Positions 11,133 through 19,326 of a stretch of DNA of 64,000 nt are shown here, piece after piece. Each line of letters begins with the position of its first letter. Position 1 is the stretch's first letter. The notes below the pieces were generated by a model, which made no database searches, was not told where the DNA came from, and saw nothing but the letters and a program-made list of their open reading frames with translations. The position numbers and the translations under genes were made by a program. The DNA is taken from NCBI RefSeq assembly GCF_988242995.1, contig NZ_OZ547043.1; one strand, given 5' to 3'.

Positions 11133-12728
11133 GTGTTAGTTTCCAGTAACGTCACCATGCAGTTCGGCAGTAAGCCGTTGTTTGAAAACATTTCCGTCAA
11201 ATTTGGCGGCGGCAACCGTTACGGCCTGATTGGCGCGAACGGTAGTGGTAAATCCACCTTTATGAAGATTCTCGGCGGCGACCTTGAGCCGACGCTGGGT
11301 AACGTTTCCCTCGATCCCAACGAGCGCATTGGTAAGCTGCGTCAGGATCAGTTTGCCTTTGAAGAGTTCACTGTGTTGGATACGGTGATCATGGGGCATA
11401 AAGAGTTGTGGGAAGTGAAGCAGGAGCGCGACCGCATCTATGCTTTGCCGGAAATGAGTGAGGAAGACGGCTATAAAGTGGCCGATCTGGAAGTGAAATA
11501 CGGCGAAATGGACGGTTACTCTGCGGAAGCTCGCGCCGGTGAACTGTTGCTTGGCGTGGGAATTCCAGTGGAACAGCACTACGGCCCGATGAGTGAAGTT
11601 GCTCCTGGCTGGAAGCTGCGTGTGCTGCTGGCGCAGGCGCTGTTTGCTGATCCGGACATTCTCCTGCTCGACGAACCGACCAACAACCTCGACATCGACA
11701 CCATTCGGTGGCTGGAACAGGTGCTGAACGAGCGTGACAGCACCATGATCATCATCTCGCACGACCGTCACTTCCTTAACATGGTTTGTACCCACATGGC
11801 GGATCTGGATTACGGCGAGCTGCGCGTTTATCCAGGTAACTACGATGAGTACATGACGGCGGCGACCCAGGCGCGTGAACGTCTGCTGGCTGATAACGCC
11901 AAGAAGAAGGCGCAGATTGCTGAGCTGCAATCTTTCGTTAGCCGCTTTAGCGCCAACGCCTCGAAATCTCGCCAGGCAACTTCGCGCGCGCGCCAGATTG
12001 ATAAAATCAAACTGGAAGAGGTGAAAGCCTCCAGCCGTCAGAACCCGTTCATCCGTTTTGAACAGGATAAGAAACTGTTCCGTAACGCGCTGGAAGTGGA
12101 AGGTCTGACCAAAGGGTTTGATAACGGTCCACTGTTTAAAAATCTCAACCTGCTGCTGGAAGTGGGTGAAAAACTGGCTGTACTGGGTACCAACGGCGTC
12201 GGTAAATCAACGCTGCTGAAAACGCTGGTGGGCGATCTGCAACCGGACAGCGGCACCGTAAAATGGTCTGAAAACGCACGCATTGGTTACTACGCCCAGG
12301 ACCACGAATATGAGTTTGAAAATGATCTGACCGTGTTCGAATGGATGAGCCAGTGGAAGCAGGAAGGCGATGACGAGCAGGCGGTACGCAGCATTCTCGG
12401 TCGTTTGCTGTTCAGCCAGGACGACATCAAAAAGCCAGCGAAAGTGCTTTCCGGTGGAGAAAAAGGGCGGATGCTGTTTGGTAAGTTAATGATGCAGAAG
12501 CCGAACATTCTGATCATGGACGAACCGACCAACCACCTGGATATGGAATCCATTGAGTCGCTGAACATGGCATTGGAACTGTATCAGGGCACGCTGATCT
12601 TTGTTTCTCACGACCGTGAGTTTGTAAGCTCCCTGGCGACCCGCATTCTGGAAATCACCCCGGAACGCGTGATCGACTTTAGCGGTAATTACGAAGATTA
12701 CCTGCGTAGTAAAGGGATCGACGGTTAA
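11133..12728 (+). CDS. ybiT: ABC-F family ATPase (two ATP-binding cassettes, no TM domain)
   Basis: Two Walker A motifs ([18 protein letters not shown]) and two ABC signatures; matches YbiT. The start is a GTG at 11133 and is not certain. Confidence 0.9.
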
Positions 12729-12865
12729 TTTCCCGCCGTCTTTCATGCGGCAGATGCATTGGCTTCACCTGTTCACCCCGGTCACTTACTTATTTAAGCT
12801 CCCGGGGTTTACAGGTTTGCTGCCTTCCTGCAGCGTGAAATACTGAGGTAAAGGATTCGATGGCT

Positions 12866-12896
12866 GGACCGGGTAAGGCGCAGTCGCCTCCCGGCC
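12866..12896. repeat. REP-like palindromic element (diverged)
   Basis: GGACCGGGTAAGGCGCAGTCGCCTCCCGGCC resembles the REP consensus (GCCGGATAAGGCG...CGCC..TCCGGC) with several mismatches. Confidence 0.35.
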
Positions 12897-12907
12897 CCGG
12901 TAATGAT

Positions 12908-15283
12908 TTAACGCATCCATTCACTCCCTTCAACACCATTGACCAGCAGCGTGCGTTTTTCTTCCACTGGTAATGACACTTTCAGTGCACTCCATGCAGG
13001 TCGATAATCCCCGCGCGCGTTGACTTTCAGGTTGATGGTCGCCCCATCGCAAACCATTTCCCATTCCACCCAAAGCGCATTACCAGTTTGGTAGCCCCAG
13101 CTTTCGCCATCGTCTTCAAACAGCAGGCCGGACGTTGTGCCCACACCTTTCAGCGGGAACAGTTTCAGTTCGCGGGTATCGTCTTGTTCTGCGCTCACAT
13201 AGGTGATGCGTTTGCTGAGCGGTAGACCAGCCCCGGCACGCACCATCAGCGGCAGTTTCTCCAGCGGTGCGTCGAGGGTGATCCACTGACCGCCACTGAA
13301 CCATTCGCCGTTGTAGAAATCGTACCAGCCAGTTTCGTTATCTGGCAGCCATACACGGCGCTGGCGCTCGCCTTGCTCTACGACGCTGGCAACCAAAATA
13401 TCGCGACCAAGCAGGAAGTCATCACACTCTTCAAAAGTCTGAACGTCGTGCTCGTGGTCAAGGAAAGTCGGACGTAGCATTGGTTCATCATCGGCGTATG
13501 CCTGCCACATCAGGGTATAAAAGTAGGGCAGCAGGCGATAGCGCAACTCAATAGCGCTGCGGATCGCCGGAGTGACGCCCGGATACATCCACGGTTCGTT
13601 TACGGTATGGTCATCGTTCCACGAGTGAATCGTAAAGCGCGGATGCATCACGCCGTTTTGTACCCAGCGTACAAACAGTTCCGGGTCCGGCTTATCACCG
13701 GAGAAACCGCCGACGTCGTGACCGAGGTTATACAGCCCGGAGAGGCTCATCCCCAGACCCATGCGGGTGTTGTAGCGCAGAGTGTCCCAGCTAGTGCGGT
13801 TATCGCCACTCCAGGTCTGCACGTAGCGCTGCATTCCCGCGCAGCCGGAGCGGGAGATCAAGTACGGACGTTTTTCCGGAGCGAAACGCTGCTGGGCTTC
13901 CATCGAGGCTCGCATCATCAGCAGTGGCATCACTGGGCGAATATGTTTGATCGCGATCGTCTGACCAAAGCCGTGACAGCGTGCTTCACCGTCCCATACT
14001 TCGAATTCGTTGTTGTCGTTCCAGGTGGAGTCGATACCCATCTCCAGAAGCTGTGTGGTCACGCCTTCCTGCCACCACTGGATGGTCTGCGGATTAGTAA
14101 AGTCGAGGTTAGAACCTTCGTCATCCCAGAAGCTGGAACGTTCTGGTTCATCTGTTTCTGAATCACGGATGAACAGTCCTCTTTCTGCCACTTCGTTATA
14201 GCGTGGGTGATCCTGCAACAGGCACGGCTTGATATTGGCGGCCAAGTGCAAACCAGCATTGTGAAATGCCTGGCTCATCACTTTCGGCTGCGGCACTTTG
14301 TCGTAATTCCAGTTGAACACATAGCGCTTGCCGTTAATTGAGGTATAACCGGAAGAGAGCTGGAACGAATCGCAGGGAATCGCATGTTCTTCACACAGGC
14401 GGATAAAGTTCATCAACTGATTTTGTGCGTCCGGCGCATCGGTGTAGTGCATAGTTGAACCGCTGTAGCCCAGGCTCCATTTCGGTCCGAACAGGGTTTT
14501 GCCGGTCAGGCGTACGAAGGCTTTGGTGATATCAAGTACGCGTTCGCCGGTAAACAGGTAGTAGTCGATATCACCCGCTTCCGCCTGCCAGCGGCGATAG
14601 GCGGTGTGGTAGTTGTCGATCTCGTTGCCCAGATCCAGCCAGCAGCTGCTGAGGTTGTCATAAAACAGGCCGAAGCTAACGTCATCGCGGCGGGTGATGG
14701 TGAATGGAATGTGTTTGTACAACGGGTCAGTACTAACGGCGTTGTAGCCCATCGCGTCGAGGTTACGCATCTCGTAACGTTTACCGTTGCGTTGCAGGTC
14801 GCCGGCTTTATCTCCGAGGCCATAAAAGCGTTCATCTTTACGACGGCTCTGATAGTGCGCCACGCCGTCGCCGTGGGCATTCAGCAGATAAGCGCTGGTC
14901 GGGCGGTCATTCACCAACGGCAGCCATTCGCCTTCGTTGTTACGATAGTGCCACTCCAGCCACAGCGGCTGGTGAACGGTGGCACGCAGTGACTCGGTGG
15001 CGATAACCACGGTGTCGTCGTGCTGGATCAATGTCCACGCGGGCAGGCTAAAGCCGCTGAGATCTTCGCGGCTGCGCCCTTCCCATGGCACATCCTGCGC
15101 CGGAGCAATGCTCCAGGTGCGATCCAGCGCCAGCTCGCCTTTGCGTTTTAACAGCACGCGGAACAGATTTTCTTCCAGCACGTACAGGCACAGGATATGC
15201 TGGCCATCGACCAGCAGTTCAACGTGGTGGGCAGACTGTTTGTGCAGGGTCCAGTTTTTCAGCGTTTTCATGTTTACATCCAT
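12908..15283 (-). CDS. Glycoside hydrolase family 31 alpha-glycosidase, cytoplasmic, substrate unknown
   Basis: 791-aa ORF with a GH31 nucleophile-region motif (GIDSTWNDNNEF, compare WIDMNE) and acid/base-region motif (VQTWSGDNRTSW). No signal peptide. Start may be the ATG at 15283 or 15271. Confidence 0.85.
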   Translation of the reverse strand: MDVNMKTLKNWTLHKQSAHHVELLVDGQHILCLYVLEENLFRVLLKRKGELALDRTWSIAPAQDVPWEGRSREDLSGFSLPAWTLIQHDDTVVIATESLRATVHQPLWLEWHYRNNEGEWLPLVNDRPTSAYLLNAHGDGVAHYQSRRKDERFYGLGDKAGDLQRNGKRYEMRNLDAMGYNAVSTDPLYKHIPFTITRRDDVSFGLFYDNLSSCWLDLGNEIDNYHTAYRRWQAEAGDIDYYLFTGERVLDITKAFVRLTGKTLFGPKWSLGYSGSTMHYTDAPDAQNQLMNFIRLCEEHAIPCDSFQLSSGYTSINGKRYVFNWNYDKVPQPKVMSQAFHNAGLHLAANIKPCLLQDHPRYNEVAERGLFIRDSETDEPERSSFWDDEGSNLDFTNPQTIQWWQEGVTTQLLEMGIDSTWNDNNEFEVWDGEARCHGFGQTIAIKHIRPVMPLLMMRASMEAQQRFAPEKRPYLISRSGCAGMQRYVQTWSGDNRTSWDTLRYNTRMGLGMSLSGLYNLGHDVGGFSGDKPDPELFVRWVQNGVMHPRFTIHSWNDDHTVNEPWMYPGVTPAIRSAIELRYRLLPYFYTLMWQAYADDEPMLRPTFLDHEHDVQTFEECDDFLLGRDILVASVVEQGERQRRVWLPDNETGWYDFYNGEWFSGGQWITLDAPLEKLPLMVRAGAGLPLSKRITYVSAEQDDTRELKLFPLKGVGTTSGLLFEDDGESWGYQTGNALWVEWEMVCDGATINLKVNARGDYRPAWSALKVSLPVEEKRTLLVNGVEGSEWMR

Positions 15284-15285
15284 TC

Positions 15286-16593
15286 TCAGGCGCGTTTTGC
15301 GCGACGTTCAGCAATAAAGGTGACCAGGAAGAAAGCACCAATCAGGTCAAAGAAGCCCATGGCGATAAACAGGGGGTTAAAGCCGATTTTGTCAGCGGTA
15401 ACCCCGATAATCAGGGAGAACAGGAAACTTGCGATCCACGCGGCAGAACCGCGCATGCCGTTAACAGTGGCCATCTGACCTTTGTCGAAGGATTCCACCA
15501 CCAGTGCGCTCAGCATGCAGGAGATGATCTGGTGACCGAAGCCGCCGATGGAAATAAGGACGATGGCGATATACGGGTTATTGGTAAAGGCCATCACCGC
15601 CAGCGAAACCATCAGGAATGCGCCACTGACCGATGATGCGACAACGGAGTTCACACGACTCAGCCCAAACAGGCGGGTGTAAAGTTTGGTCAGATAGCCG
15701 CTGGCAATACTGCCAAGATCAGCGGCGAGGAACGGCAACCAGGCGAATAATGCGATCTGCTTAAGGTCCATGCCATAGGTTTTGGACAGGTATAGCGGAA
15801 CCCAGAAACTCATCACCGCCCACGCCGGTTCTGCCATAAAGGCCGGGATAGCGATACCGTAAAAGCGTTTATTTTTGCCTACGGTTTTCAGTGCGGTCAG
15901 AAAGGGTAACTTGACAGGGGGCGCTTCGTTATCCTGGCGGATAAAGTCCAGCTCGGCTTTGCTGAGGTTAGGATGCTTATCCGGGTTGTGATAGAACGCC
16001 CACCACAGCACCACCCACAGCATCGCCAGGATGCCAGTGAACATAAATGCACCCTGCCAGCCGAATGAAGCGTGGGCAAAATAGATAATCGGTGGGGCCA
16101 GCATGGCACCGATGGAAAAACCGACGCCTGCCCAGCCTGCGGCGATCGGGCGTTCTGATTTTGGAAACCATTCACCGATGGTTTTGGCGTTTGCTGGGGT
16201 TGCCGCGGCTTCCGCACCGCCCATAAAGAAGCGCAACAGCGCCAGATGTACCCAGTTTCCCGCCCCCGCATGCATCAGACAGGCCAGCGCCCACAGTCCC
16301 GCGCAGATCATAAAGCCCAGTTTGAGGCCAATGACGTCAATCAGCCATCCACACAACGGTTGGAATAGGGTATAGGCGAGCTGGAAAGCACCTACAATCC
16401 AGGAATATTGTTCGGTGGTAATCCCCAGGCTGCTTTTCAGTTCGGGGGCGAGAATACCCAGCGAGTTACGCGTGATGTAGTTGACAGTAACACCGAGCAA
16501 AAAAAGGACCAGTATCCACCAACGCAGATTTTTGACGATATGGCGCGGTTTACTGGCAGTCATATCGTTATTGATACCCTGACTCATATGCAC
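15286..16593 (-). CDS. MFS transporter, anion:cation symporter (ACS) family-like
   Basis: 435-aa 12-TM-type ORF with an ACS-like N-terminal signature (RWWILVLFLLGVTVNYITRNSLGILAPE...). Its stop lies 2 nt upstream of the GH31 ATG, indicating an operon. Confidence 0.85.
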   Translation of the reverse strand: MHMSQGINNDMTASKPRHIVKNLRWWILVLFLLGVTVNYITRNSLGILAPELKSSLGITTEQYSWIVGAFQLAYTLFQPLCGWLIDVIGLKLGFMICAGLWALACLMHAGAGNWVHLALLRFFMGGAEAAATPANAKTIGEWFPKSERPIAAGWAGVGFSIGAMLAPPIIYFAHASFGWQGAFMFTGILAMLWVVLWWAFYHNPDKHPNLSKAELDFIRQDNEAPPVKLPFLTALKTVGKNKRFYGIAIPAFMAEPAWAVMSFWVPLYLSKTYGMDLKQIALFAWLPFLAADLGSIASGYLTKLYTRLFGLSRVNSVVASSVSGAFLMVSLAVMAFTNNPYIAIVLISIGGFGHQIISCMLSALVVESFDKGQMATVNGMRGSAAWIASFLFSLIIGVTADKIGFNPLFIAMGFFDLIGAFFLVTFIAERRAKRA

Positions 16594-16881
16594 TCCACAG
16601 AATGGTATAGGGTTTGTGCGGCAACGTCAGAATGGAGTTGTCACACCACTTTTAACTTTTTGATAAATAAAGTCTTTATTGTTCGTTTTTCCATTATTTT
16701 TGTATGGAAGTTGTTCTACCAATTCACAGTAAGAGACCCTAAAAGCGAAAGAAAGCGGGTTTTGTGCACGTTTTTCCATGAGTGACTGATATACATTACT
16801 GAAATGGATTTAATGCCAGACAGAATGGGCTTTTTTGCTCATGAAAATTCTGTCATTTCCGAATTAGAGGCAGATCACAAA

Positions 16882-17985
16882 ATGGACAAGAAGCTGAAAA
16901 TCGCCGATATCGCCGCACGTACCGGGCTATCGCCGAGTACGGTTTCGCGGGTGCTGGCTGGCAAAGCGAATACCAGTGCACGCGCTCGCGAACAGGTGCT
17001 GGCCTGCGCGCGTGAGTTGGGCGTGATGGATGGCATGGCAGCAGGTCGTATGTTGCTGAACAACCTGATTATTTTCGCGCCGCAACGCGCTTTTGACCAA
17101 CGATCTGATATCTTTTATTACCGTGTGATCCAGAGCATCAGCAAAGCGTTATCGCCGCATGAAGTGCGGCTGCGTTACTGCGCGCTGGAGGAGTTTGACA
17201 GCGATCCCGCGCTATTTCTCTCGCGGATGAATGAAGCAGATACGCAGGCGGCGATCCTGCTGGGGATTGACGATCCGCACATCCATGATCTGGCCGCCGA
17301 TCTCGCTAAGCCTTGTGTGCTGATCAACTGCCGTGATGAACGAATGCGCCTCCCGGCGATTGCGCCGGACCATCGGTTAATTGGCGCGTTCGCCGCCCGC
17401 TATCTGTTTGAAATGGGTCACCGGGAGGTGATGAATGTGATGTGCCTGCGCCGCTACACTATGGAGCAGCGGTTTGCAGGGATTAAAGAATCATGGCGTC
17501 AGCATAATCTGGCCTTTCACCATGACCGTCATTTGCTGAATATCAGCAGTTTTAGCGCTAAAGAAGCGGAAGAAAAGGTCGGAGCGTGGCTGGATGCCGC
17601 CAATGGCAAGACGTTGCCGACGGCGTTTCTGGTCGGCGGGGATTTTATGGCGGCGGGAACGGTAAATGCGCTACATCGTCGTGGTCTGCGCGTACCACAG
17701 GATGTCTCGGTGATGAGTATCGACGGCTTTAACCTTGCGGCAATCGAGGATGTTCCCCTGACGGCTGTGCATGTGCCACGCGATGAGCTAGGCAATGAAG
17801 CGGTGCAAATGTTGCAACAGCGGCTGATTCGCCCGGATGCTCCGGTGGGCTCGCTGCTGCTGCACGGACGATTGGCGGTGCGGGAGTCAGTGCGGCGGGT
17901 TCGCCCAGGAAAAGGGAACACCGCCGTGGAACGGGAAGGGCTGTACGACACTCAGCTGTCGATTCCCAACGCTCGCTTACCGTGA
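16882..17985 (+). CDS. LacI-family transcriptional regulator, divergent from the MFS-GH31 operon
   Basis: N-terminal HTH KIADIAARTGLSPSTVSRVL followed by a periplasmic-binding-protein-like sugar-binding core. Start chosen at MDKKLKIADI; upstream in-frame ATGs exist, so the start is uncertain. Confidence 0.8.
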   Translation: MDKKLKIADIAARTGLSPSTVSRVLAGKANTSARAREQVLACARELGVMDGMAAGRMLLNNLIIFAPQRAFDQRSDIFYYRVIQSISKALSPHEVRLRYCALEEFDSDPALFLSRMNEADTQAAILLGIDDPHIHDLAADLAKPCVLINCRDERMRLPAIAPDHRLIGAFAARYLFEMGHREVMNVMCLRRYTMEQRFAGIKESWRQHNLAFHHDRHLLNISSFSAKEAEEKVGAWLDAANGKTLPTAFLVGGDFMAAGTVNALHRRGLRVPQDVSVMSIDGFNLAAIEDVPLTAVHVPRDELGNEAVQMLQQRLIRPDAPVGSLLLHGRLAVRESVRRVRPGKGNTAVEREGLYDTQLSIPNARLP

Positions 17986-19217
17986 ATGTTGAGGTCGGCA
18001 AGCGTAAAGCGTCCTTCCCAGTTTGTTTCATAGTCCTCGCGCGGGAAGTCGCCCGGCGATGCGCCTTTTTCCAGTGCGGCCTTCACCTTGTGCGCGTAGG
18101 CAAGATTTTTCTCGCACATCGGTGCCGCAGGAATGTACATCACGTTGCCCCAGCCCTGTTGATTTTCAACGGGGGCAACGGAATGGATGACGTCGCAGTG
18201 CCACCAGACGGAGTCTCCGGCTTCGAGTTTTGGAATGCTGGTTAACGCCTCAATCAACAGTGGATGCCATTGCTCTGATACCGGCAATACTCTTCCGGGC
18301 GCTACGCCGCACAGTTCATCCTCCGGCACATCATCAAGCAGCGGACGTAACAGTACGTACGCCATGGCTTCAGGAATGGGCACGACGTGCAGCAGCCCCT
18401 GACCAGGCAGCATATCAGAGAGCGCTGTCCAGCCCTGGAATGTCCGAAACACGGAACATTTGGTGGTGTTGTCCACCGTGTACTCTTCAACTTCCGTACG
18501 ATGTGCCGCATGCCAGGGATCATATTGCGCCAGATTGCCATTAAAGACGTTGGCGAAAACGCGCTGATACGCTGGAAGCAGCCAGCGTTCCAGTGCCCCG
18601 GAGTCGGTATGCGCTCCAAGACCTTTGGAGGTCGTTCCGGGCGGACGGCGGCGGATACGGTCAGGGTAGATGACGCTCACATCCGGGTTAAACCATTGCT
18701 TTCCATCACTTTCAAATGTCCACAGACGATTGAGAAACGACTGCGCATTCGCCATTTCTTCACTCTGGCGAGCCTGCATTTGCGCCTGCGACCAGTAGAT
18801 GGGGTAAATCTCGGGACGTGAAGCGCTGAGCGTCCCGAAGAAATTATCGCCGGGGCCTTTGTAGACCTCGTCAAAGCGGTTGCGGTCCAGATAGTCCAGC
18901 ATCGACTGATCCCAGCCTAGCGCTTGTTCGCGGGGGAAATGGCCTTTTATCACCGCACAACCGCGACGTTTAATCTGTTCGCGCTGCTCTGCAGTAACAT
19001 GACCTGCTTTGATATCGGCATAAGACAGCACCGGCCAGATGGCATCGCCCTGTGCTTTGAGTGCGTTGATTTCAGCCACTCGCGTAGCAATGTCATCGCT
19101 TAGCTGATTAAAGATCTGCTGGACGTCGCCAAGCTGTGCCCGCAGCGCGTGCTTCATCTGACGGATAGCTGCTTTGTGATCGGCAGGCAATGTGTCGCTG
19201 GTAAAAGTAGAAGCCAT
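17952..19217 (-). CDS. ybiU: DUF1479-family protein
   Basis: Start MASTFTSDTLPADHKAAIRQ... preceded by SD GAGGTGG; matches YbiU. Its 3' end overlaps the convergent LacI-family gene by 34 bp. Confidence 0.85.
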   Translation of the reverse strand: MASTFTSDTLPADHKAAIRQMKHALRAQLGDVQQIFNQLSDDIATRVAEINALKAQGDAIWPVLSYADIKAGHVTAEQREQIKRRGCAVIKGHFPREQALGWDQSMLDYLDRNRFDEVYKGPGDNFFGTLSASRPEIYPIYWSQAQMQARQSEEMANAQSFLNRLWTFESDGKQWFNPDVSVIYPDRIRRRPPGTTSKGLGAHTDSGALERWLLPAYQRVFANVFNGNLAQYDPWHAAHRTEVEEYTVDNTTKCSVFRTFQGWTALSDMLPGQGLLHVVPIPEAMAYVLLRPLLDDVPEDELCGVAPGRVLPVSEQWHPLLIEALTSIPKLEAGDSVWWHCDVIHSVAPVENQQGWGNVMYIPAAPMCEKNLAYAHKVKAALEKGASPGDFPREDYETNWEGRFTLADLNIHGKRALGIDS

Positions 19218-19326
19218 AACCACCTCGCATTAACTTTCATTCGAAACTATAATGATTTGCATGTGACAATATAAGTTATAAATAAGTTAATGCAAGTTTA
19301 ATGATTTGATGTGATGTACAGGATGT

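Follow-up and report, generated by a model that had tools for sequence, protein, structure and literature searches.

A 34-bp convergent overlap between a LacI-family regulator gene and ybiU in Escherichia coli and its probable origin by stop-codon loss

A LacI-family regulator gene and ybiU share 34 bp at their 3′ ends in the E. coli chromosome segment analysed here, and we consider it very probable that this overlap was formed when a point substitution removed the regulator stop in an old pair of convergent neighbours with interlocked stops. The segment, called the window below, is a stretch of 64,000 nucleotides (NCBI RefSeq assembly GCF_988242995.1, contig NZ_OZ547043.1) that spans ybiT to ybiW. 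The original prediction had taken the overlap as the mark of an island junction, and had suggested that the insertion or deletion behind it fused or altered one of the two C-termini. Comparison with orthologues points instead to a substitution, TTAA to TCAG, and away from an insertion or deletion that fused or truncated the regulator.

The significance is small. Apart from annotation hygiene, the case may serve in teaching, as a clear instance of how a seeming "junction artefact" at the end of a gene can go back to an old point mutation that caused read-through, and of how a conserved-looking N-terminal extension can be translated operator. In the literature on ybiU/DUF1479, ybiU appears only in general surveys, for example the paper on the E. 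coli "y-ome", which is about genes without experimental evidence of function, and nothing was found about the regulator/ybiU junction.

The gene pair and the C-terminus of the regulator

The regulator gene lies on the plus strand (16882–17985) and codes for 367 aa from the conserved start MDKKLKI, an assignment based on domains, orthologue alignment and the annotation of one locus (L094); its longest ORF covers 16804–17985 (393 aa). On the minus strand, ybiU (17952–19217; longest ORF 17952–19223) codes for a protein of 421 aa with a Pfam match to Gig2-like/DUF1479 and the C-terminus …HGKRALGIDS*. According to the ORF list and the sequence, the two genes have positions 17952–17985 in common, tail-to-tail, with the regulator ending at 17985 and ybiU at 17952. 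RefSeq/PGAP gives identical 3′ ends for both genes in strain SCU-102 (10386 and 10353 of locus L001, corresponding to 17985 and 17952 of the window) and the same two gene ends in FDAARGOS_497. The predicted overlap is thus confirmed, and the C-terminal peptide that had been quoted for the regulator is correct.

By its domains, the regulator belongs to the LacI/GalR family. Pfam places a LacI helix-turn-helix (PF00356, 33.6 bits at a cut-off of 27) at residues 33–73 of the 393-aa ORF, and the effector domain matches PF13377 (Peripla_BP_3, 97.6 bits) and PF00532 (Peripla_BP_1, 56.8 bits). The best NCBIfam equivalog score is that of RbsR, with 113.6 bits against a cut-off of 382, and since the scores are far under every equivalog cut-off, the protein represents an unnamed clade. 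Its gene is divergent from the adjoining transporter-glycosidase operon, which consists of an MFS transporter (15286–16587, minus strand) and a GH31 glycosidase (12908–15271, minus strand). In the helix-turn-helix, the Peripla_BP_1/3 domain, the divergent operon and, with candidate operators, the near-palindromic promoter sites, the regulator resembles repressors of the RbsR, PurR, CytR and CcpA type, while it differs from them by an 18-residue conserved tail (…RPGK..TAVEREGLYD) and, in E. coli, by a 10-residue extension.

The last ~30 residues (…VRRVRPGKGNTAVEREGLYD) had been described as unlike a LacI-family C-terminus. They do lie beyond the family core, the full-length models of RbsR, PurR and CytR aligning up to ~residue 339 of 367. 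About 20 of them, however, are the conserved tail of the clade, found in more than 25 genera, and only the last 10 are extra. From the end of the family models and the orthologue alignment, the C-terminus can be divided into the family core, a native tail of 18 residues and an extension of 10 residues. The tail, VRPGKGNTAVEREGLYDT (17899–17952, plus strand), is clade-specific and conserved in all 24 orthologues aligned; the motif RESVRR[VI]RPGK..TAVEREGLYD is kept in every genus, with R, S, V, R, R, R, G, V, G, L and Y invariant. A search of a large protein collection found the orthologues spread throughout Enterobacteriaceae, most often with 357 aa (the modal length), and they usually end in GLYDx*, one residue past GLYD.

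The extension, QLSIPNARLP (17953–17982, plus strand), comprises 10 codons antisense to YbiU HGKRALGIDS, with the third codon positions of both frames coinciding, and is closed by a backup TGA (17983–17985, plus strand), which on the opposite strand consists of the third base of a ybiU Ile codon (ATT) and the CA of a His codon (CAC). The C-terminal peptide of the extended regulator in E. coli is …EGLYDTQLSIPNARLP, and from the reading frame the 367-aa form is predicted to be produced there. Extensions of 10 residues (QLSIPNARLP, QTSIPSARLP and similar) were found in E. coli, in several Kluyvera and Pseudocitrobacter, and in one protein of S. enterica subsp. diarizonae.

An AF2 model of the regulator gives pLDDT values below 40 for all residues after the last β-strand. 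The model is mediocre (mean pLDDT 66, from a shallow alignment of 24 sequences) and was used solely to compare the tail with the confident core. In it, neither the tail nor the extension belongs to the part of the fold predicted with confidence, and it weakly supports the description of the extension as disordered.

Interlocked stops across Enterobacteriaceae

Kluyvera, Citrobacter and Salmonella share the gene order ybiT, GH31, MFS, LacI, ybiU, ybiV, ybiW, ybiY, which holds in most of the 80 species-level loci kept from GTDB species representatives. The cassette occupies the same position also in Enterobacter, Klebsiella, Raoultella, Kosakonia and others. As judged from this synteny, the ybiT–ybiU "island" is the ancestral state of Enterobacteriaceae and would not be a mobile insertion.

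In 67 loci ybiU adjoins the regulator gene. The overlap is 4 bp in 56 of these, with the tetranucleotides TTAA (34 loci), TTAG (10), CTAA (7) and CTAG (5), and 34 bp in the remaining 11, with TCAG (9), TCAA (1) and TCAC (1). Citrobacter and Salmonella have the short overlap and Kluyvera the long one; the 34-bp class consists of E. coli, five Kluyvera species, three Pseudocitrobacter species and S. enterica subsp. diarizonae. In the window the tetramer is TCAG (17952–17955), which is not among the four stop-stop tetramers, and only ybiU stops there, its TGA being the reverse complement of 17952–17954. At 17953–17955 the regulator has CAG (Gln) in place of the TAA or TAG of its orthologues; among the TCA[G/A/C] loci the lost stop reads Gln or His.

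The change is best seen when the two junctions are aligned. Salmonella has GAT AGT TAA ATG TCC ATA CCT AAT GCC CGC TTG CCG TGA, and E. coli has GAC ACT CAG CTG TCG ATT CCC AAC GCT CGC TTA CCG TGA. In Salmonella, both stops lie within TTAA: the regulator reads TAA forward, and TTA, read backward as TAA, serves ybiU. The same TGA closes the extension in all 11 of the 34-bp loci, and on the opposite strand it is made up of the third base of a ybiU Ile/Leu codon and the CA of a conserved His, in the YbiU context …I-H-G-K-R-A-L-G….

Lillo and Krakauer (2007, PMC2174442) found that convergent overlaps of 4 nt use exactly CTAA, TTAA, CTAG and TTAG, and described stop-codon mutation, leading to read-through, as a route to convergent overlaps. 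The present case matches that description in all essentials. The orthologues show the four permitted tetramers, and the window has a one-base derivative that reads to the next in-frame stop in the neighbour, in the phase inherited from the 4-nt overlap. Orthologues carry a stop at the homologous codon (Salmonella AGT TAA against E. coli ACT CAG), and the first in-frame stop within ybiU closes the extension, which shows no conservation of its own. On these comparisons, the window overlap is what would be called a textbook stop-codon-mutation convergent overlap.

We propose the following course of events. Ancestrally, the stops of the regulator and of ybiU would have been interlocked in a 4-bp tetramer, typically as T-TAA forward and TTA-A backward. 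In the lineage from which E. coli, Kluyvera and Pseudocitrobacter have their versions of the cassette, the second base of the tetramer would have gone from T to C; for S. enterica subsp. diarizonae, either a separate origin of this change or its later reversal in S. enterica would have to be assumed. This substitution would be silent for ybiU, turning the stop TAA into the stop TGA, and would convert the regulator stop into a Gln codon (CAA or CAG). Ribosomes would then continue for 10 codons through the antisense of the ybiU end, up to the TGA provided by the conserved Ile/Leu-His codons, giving an overlap of 34 bp and a regulator of 367 aa instead of 357 aa. The added peptide would probably be a tolerated, disordered appendage.

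Several points about this substitution should be made. At a TTAN tetramer the change from T to C is silent for ybiU and abolishes the regulator stop, whereas at CTAN it would cost both genes their stops. We infer its direction from the outgroup majority and from parsimony, and the Salmonella pair, TTAA versus TCAA, indicates that the site can change either way. The third codon positions coincide (17955, 17958 and so on) because the phase was inherited from the 4-nt state, and this is the least constraining antisense phase. The length of the overlap is not above chance once the stop is lost, since the reading frame just runs to the next in-frame stop, which is 10 codons away; with a simple model of 3/64 per codon, we calculate that ~4 of 10 read-throughs would meet a stop within that distance. 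If instead the ybiU stop were lost in the window, 141 codons would be added, via the in-frame ORF at 17529–17951.

Tight packing is not restricted to the pair with ybiU. Regulators with a neighbour other than ybiU, in Cedecea, Buttiauxella and others, also end in GLYDx. In seven loci (L083 and L086–L091; Cedecea, Buttiauxella, Dryocola and others), where ybiU is not present, the regulator stop lies right next to the 3′ end of a different convergent gene, the antisense translation of which resembles a MoeB-like C-terminus (…MYDAMTCQFREMKLPRHPQCDVCG). Since the stop abuts a convergent gene also in these genera, tail-to-tail packing is general for the regulator.

The variable segment in E. coli and alternative explanations

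Within E. coli, the region is polymorphic. The variable segment (12729–17951), which contains the GH31, MFS and regulator genes, is present in 577 of 5426 complete genomes, while K-12-type strains have a 240-bp REP-containing spacer in its place, in which no cassette remnants were found. The right boundary of the polymorphism covers 13 nt (17952–17964), namely the ybiU stop and the last 3–4 codons, and the haplotypes differ there at about half of the positions. From 17965 on they are ~99% identical, the similarity of island-free genomes breaking at 17959/17965. The proposal that the overlap marks a junction is therefore right to the extent that this haplotype boundary falls inside it, but the adjacency of regulator and ybiU was not made by an insertion, as it is found in interlocked form in ~56 loci of many genera.

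Similarly, one C-terminus does differ between the haplotypes, but the regulator extension does not come from that event. YbiU ends in GIDS* in genomes with the segment and in GMDV* in those without it, with equal length and the stop at the same position. The orthologues have GIDG, GIDV and GIDA in Kluyvera and GMDI and GMDV in Salmonella, and both E. coli tails are within this normal variation.

At the left boundary (12720–12731, plus strand), ybiT ends in …KGIDG* (531 aa), compared with …KGIE* (530 aa) in island-free E. coli. The YbiT C-terminus was considered as a marker of ancestry and rejected, KGIDG, KGIE, KGIES and KGIDN all occurring among island-bearing genera. The spacer between ybiT and GH31 (12729–12907) contains a sequence, cacctgttcaccccggtcacttacttatttaagctcccgggg, which we take to be like the core of an ERIC repeat. 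The spacer is closely similar to the one in Citrobacter (L006, L024).

Features of a classical mobile genomic island are for the most part missing from the segment. Between ybiT and ybiU, the annotation shows no integrase, no transposase and no tRNA gene; repeats at the boundaries are at most 7 nt long (mean of 7.3 in shuffled sequence), which is not beyond chance; and the GC content of 54–57.5% is similar to that of ybiU and ybiW (55–56%). The cassette is moreover syntenic across the family, not absent from the corresponding position in related genera. What it shares with mobile islands is the presence/absence polymorphism within the species. It resembles E. coli islets between core genes, which are replaced by REP/BIME spacers, with alternative non-homologous segments between ybiT and ybiU, a REP spacer, IS621 in some genomes and several coexisting haplotypes. 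It differs from a mobile island in lacking integrase, tRNA gene and boundary repeats, and in that the long version is the syntenic state of Enterobacteriaceae.

The polymorphism also bears on the age of the overlap. The segment occurs in E. coli as two allele groups ~1.8% apart, both with TCAG, and its diversity within the species (1.3–2.6%) matches that of the flanks (1.4–1.7%). These two observations place the overlap before the diversification of E. coli.

We now turn to the question of how the cassette came to E. coli. It is possible, although we would not call it probable, that E. coli received it from a Kluyvera-related lineage, or exchanged it with one, by homologous recombination via ybiT and ybiU, the right crossover lying in the final ~30 bp of ybiU, so that the extension and the GIDS tail came together; the alternative is vertical retention with loss in most E. 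coli. In neighbour-joining (NJ) trees, computed with fast distances, the island genes group E. coli with Kluyvera, and then Salmonella (bootstrap 79/100 for LacI and 62/100 for the concatenated genes), while the trees of YbiT+YbiW, YbiU and YbiV have E. coli with Citrobacter and Salmonella, and Kluyvera elsewhere; the support in all this is only moderate. The YbiU tail of island-type genomes, GID[SGAV], is Kluyvera-like and that of island-free genomes, GMDV, is like the Salmonella GMD[IV], a comparison that comprises 12 nt. Among the 80 kept GTDB loci there is no full-length, high-identity Escherichia copy, the sole Escherichia match being Escherichia sp. MOD1-EC7003.

Against an import, the identity between the E. 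coli and Kluyvera islands is 81–83% at the nucleotide level, as deep as in core genes, and the E. coli island is as diverse as its flanks, so any transfer would be older than the diversification of E. coli. The reverse direction, from an Escherichia-like donor into Kluyvera, is equally possible. The incongruence of the trees suggests that the cassette was exchanged laterally long ago, in either direction, by way of conserved flanks. It is important to note that such an exchange would bear on the arrival of the GIDS tail and the extension in E. coli and not on the origin of the extension, and that it would complement the explanation by stop loss.

A broader version seems rather unlikely to us. 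It holds that the TTAA pair is a recurrent one-base toggle, a transition silent for ybiU by which the regulator alternates between 357 and 367 aa; that the extended form is kept only where a backup stop lies 10 codons off; and that this form travelled with the cassette in a recombinational Escherichia-like/Kluyvera-like exchange having its crossover in the last ~30 bp of ybiU.

We consider it improbable, and distinctly more so, that the extension or the overlap is under selection, either through a function that the 10 residues add to the regulator (e.g. an interaction motif) or through a coupling of regulator and ybiU by transcriptional interference from the antisense overlap. The extended state does persist across several genera and in all 577 of the E. 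coli carriers. Furthermore, all observed stop losses have the backup stop 10 codons off, while 39 of the 56 loci with 4-bp overlap would read through 25–26 codons; this pattern is suggestive, but the loci are phylogenetically non-independent. The conserved YbiU HGKRALG, read antisense, gives the conserved stretch P[NS]ARLP of the extension, and the variable part of the extension mirrors the variable last three residues of YbiU. The conservation is fully accounted for by HGKRALG, with the wobble positions coinciding, and the alignment gives no sign of independent selection on the extension.

Nor do the junction itself and the protein model favour a selected function. RNA structure at the junction is not significant (z of −1.2 and −1.4 against shuffled controls), terminators show no excess there (3 found versus 3.5 expected), a promoter test at the junction gave nothing above shuffled controls, and Rfam gave no credible match. 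The tail of the regulator is low in predicted order (AF2), and the 4-bp overlap alone already forces the transcripts into the neighbouring gene. We infer that the extension is neutral.

Very little credence, finally, can be given to a fusion or truncation of the regulator or of ybiU by a junction-forming insertion or deletion in E. coli, which would make the odd C-terminus an artefact of the junction: the boundary inside the overlap, the differing last residues of YbiU and YbiT and the spacer devoid of cassette remnants speak for it, but the orthologue alignment finds the same extension and 34-bp overlap in Kluyvera, Pseudocitrobacter and S. enterica subsp. diarizonae, the adjacency is interlocked in 56 loci, 20 of the 30 residues are conserved family sequence, and the YbiU variants GIDS, GMDV, GIDG and GMDI are of equal length and represent normal orthologue variation. 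An extension shared by orthologues had been named in the original prediction as an outcome that would refute it. A very recent spread of the E. coli junction to the other genera is excluded by the nucleotide identity of only ~80%.

Start codon, promoter region and atypical loci

PGAP annotates the start of the regulator at 16825 in some genomes and at 16882 in L094. The ATG at 16882 (MDKKLKIADIA…) matches the start of most orthologues in the alignment of 24, and the translation start is accordingly most likely there and not at 16804; for annotation, we suggest the start 16882 (367 aa) and a native end at GLYDx.

Two operator-like near-palindromes, both conserved across 9 genera, are found in the promoter region shared by the divergent MFS and regulator genes: ATGAAAATTCTGTCAT (16841–16856), ~25 nt upstream of the start codon, and TGCACGTTTTTCCAT (16765–16779). 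The two sites are likely candidates for operators. They emerged only from the cross-genus alignment, and a search for inverted repeats in the promoter region with exact 6-nt seeds found none. The "conserved" N-terminal extension HENSVISE, given by the ORFs from 16804 or 16825, is spurious since it is translated from the site at 16841–16856.

A number of E. coli haplotypes deviate from the two described above. About 1,200 of the 5,426 complete genomes are without ybiU, and in these ybiT and ybiV are ~200 bp apart, with a REP-like spacer (e.g. strain 729_270514_x_12, L011 3094–3292). ETEC1701 (L010 3333–4592) has a ybiU allele ~76% identical in nucleotides to that of K-12, together with a K-12-type spacer and an identical 3′ end, …GMDV*, and ~124 genomes fall in the 60–80% identity band for ybiU. 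This ~76% allele would appear to be either imported or anciently diverged, and the locus to be a hot spot of recombination. In many K-12-type genomes (H31, H42–H44 and others), IS621 of the IS110 family is annotated within the ybiT–ybiV region; it is listed between ybiU and ybiV and also given as lying in the REP spacer.

Strain HH97 (H30/L009) was considered as a third type of junction and rejected. It has ~2.6 kb of low-complexity, G-/C-rich sequence (L009 5506–8126) with no annotated genes between ybiT and ybiV, and this stretch in place of ybiU is most likely an assembly artefact.

An assembly labelled "E. coli" (L092 220–13116, L093) carries a GH31-MFS-LacI cassette of 71% identity elsewhere, flanked by transposases and beside a molybdopterin oxidoreductase cluster. 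The regulator of L092 has GLYDA and then CAA, after which the sequence is unrelated; this may be a further case of stop loss. In the Salmonella enterica isolate GCA_005940365.1 (L008 8598–9407), the strand of ybiV is flipped relative to E. coli, Citrobacter and Kluyvera, a local inversion in the conserved block.
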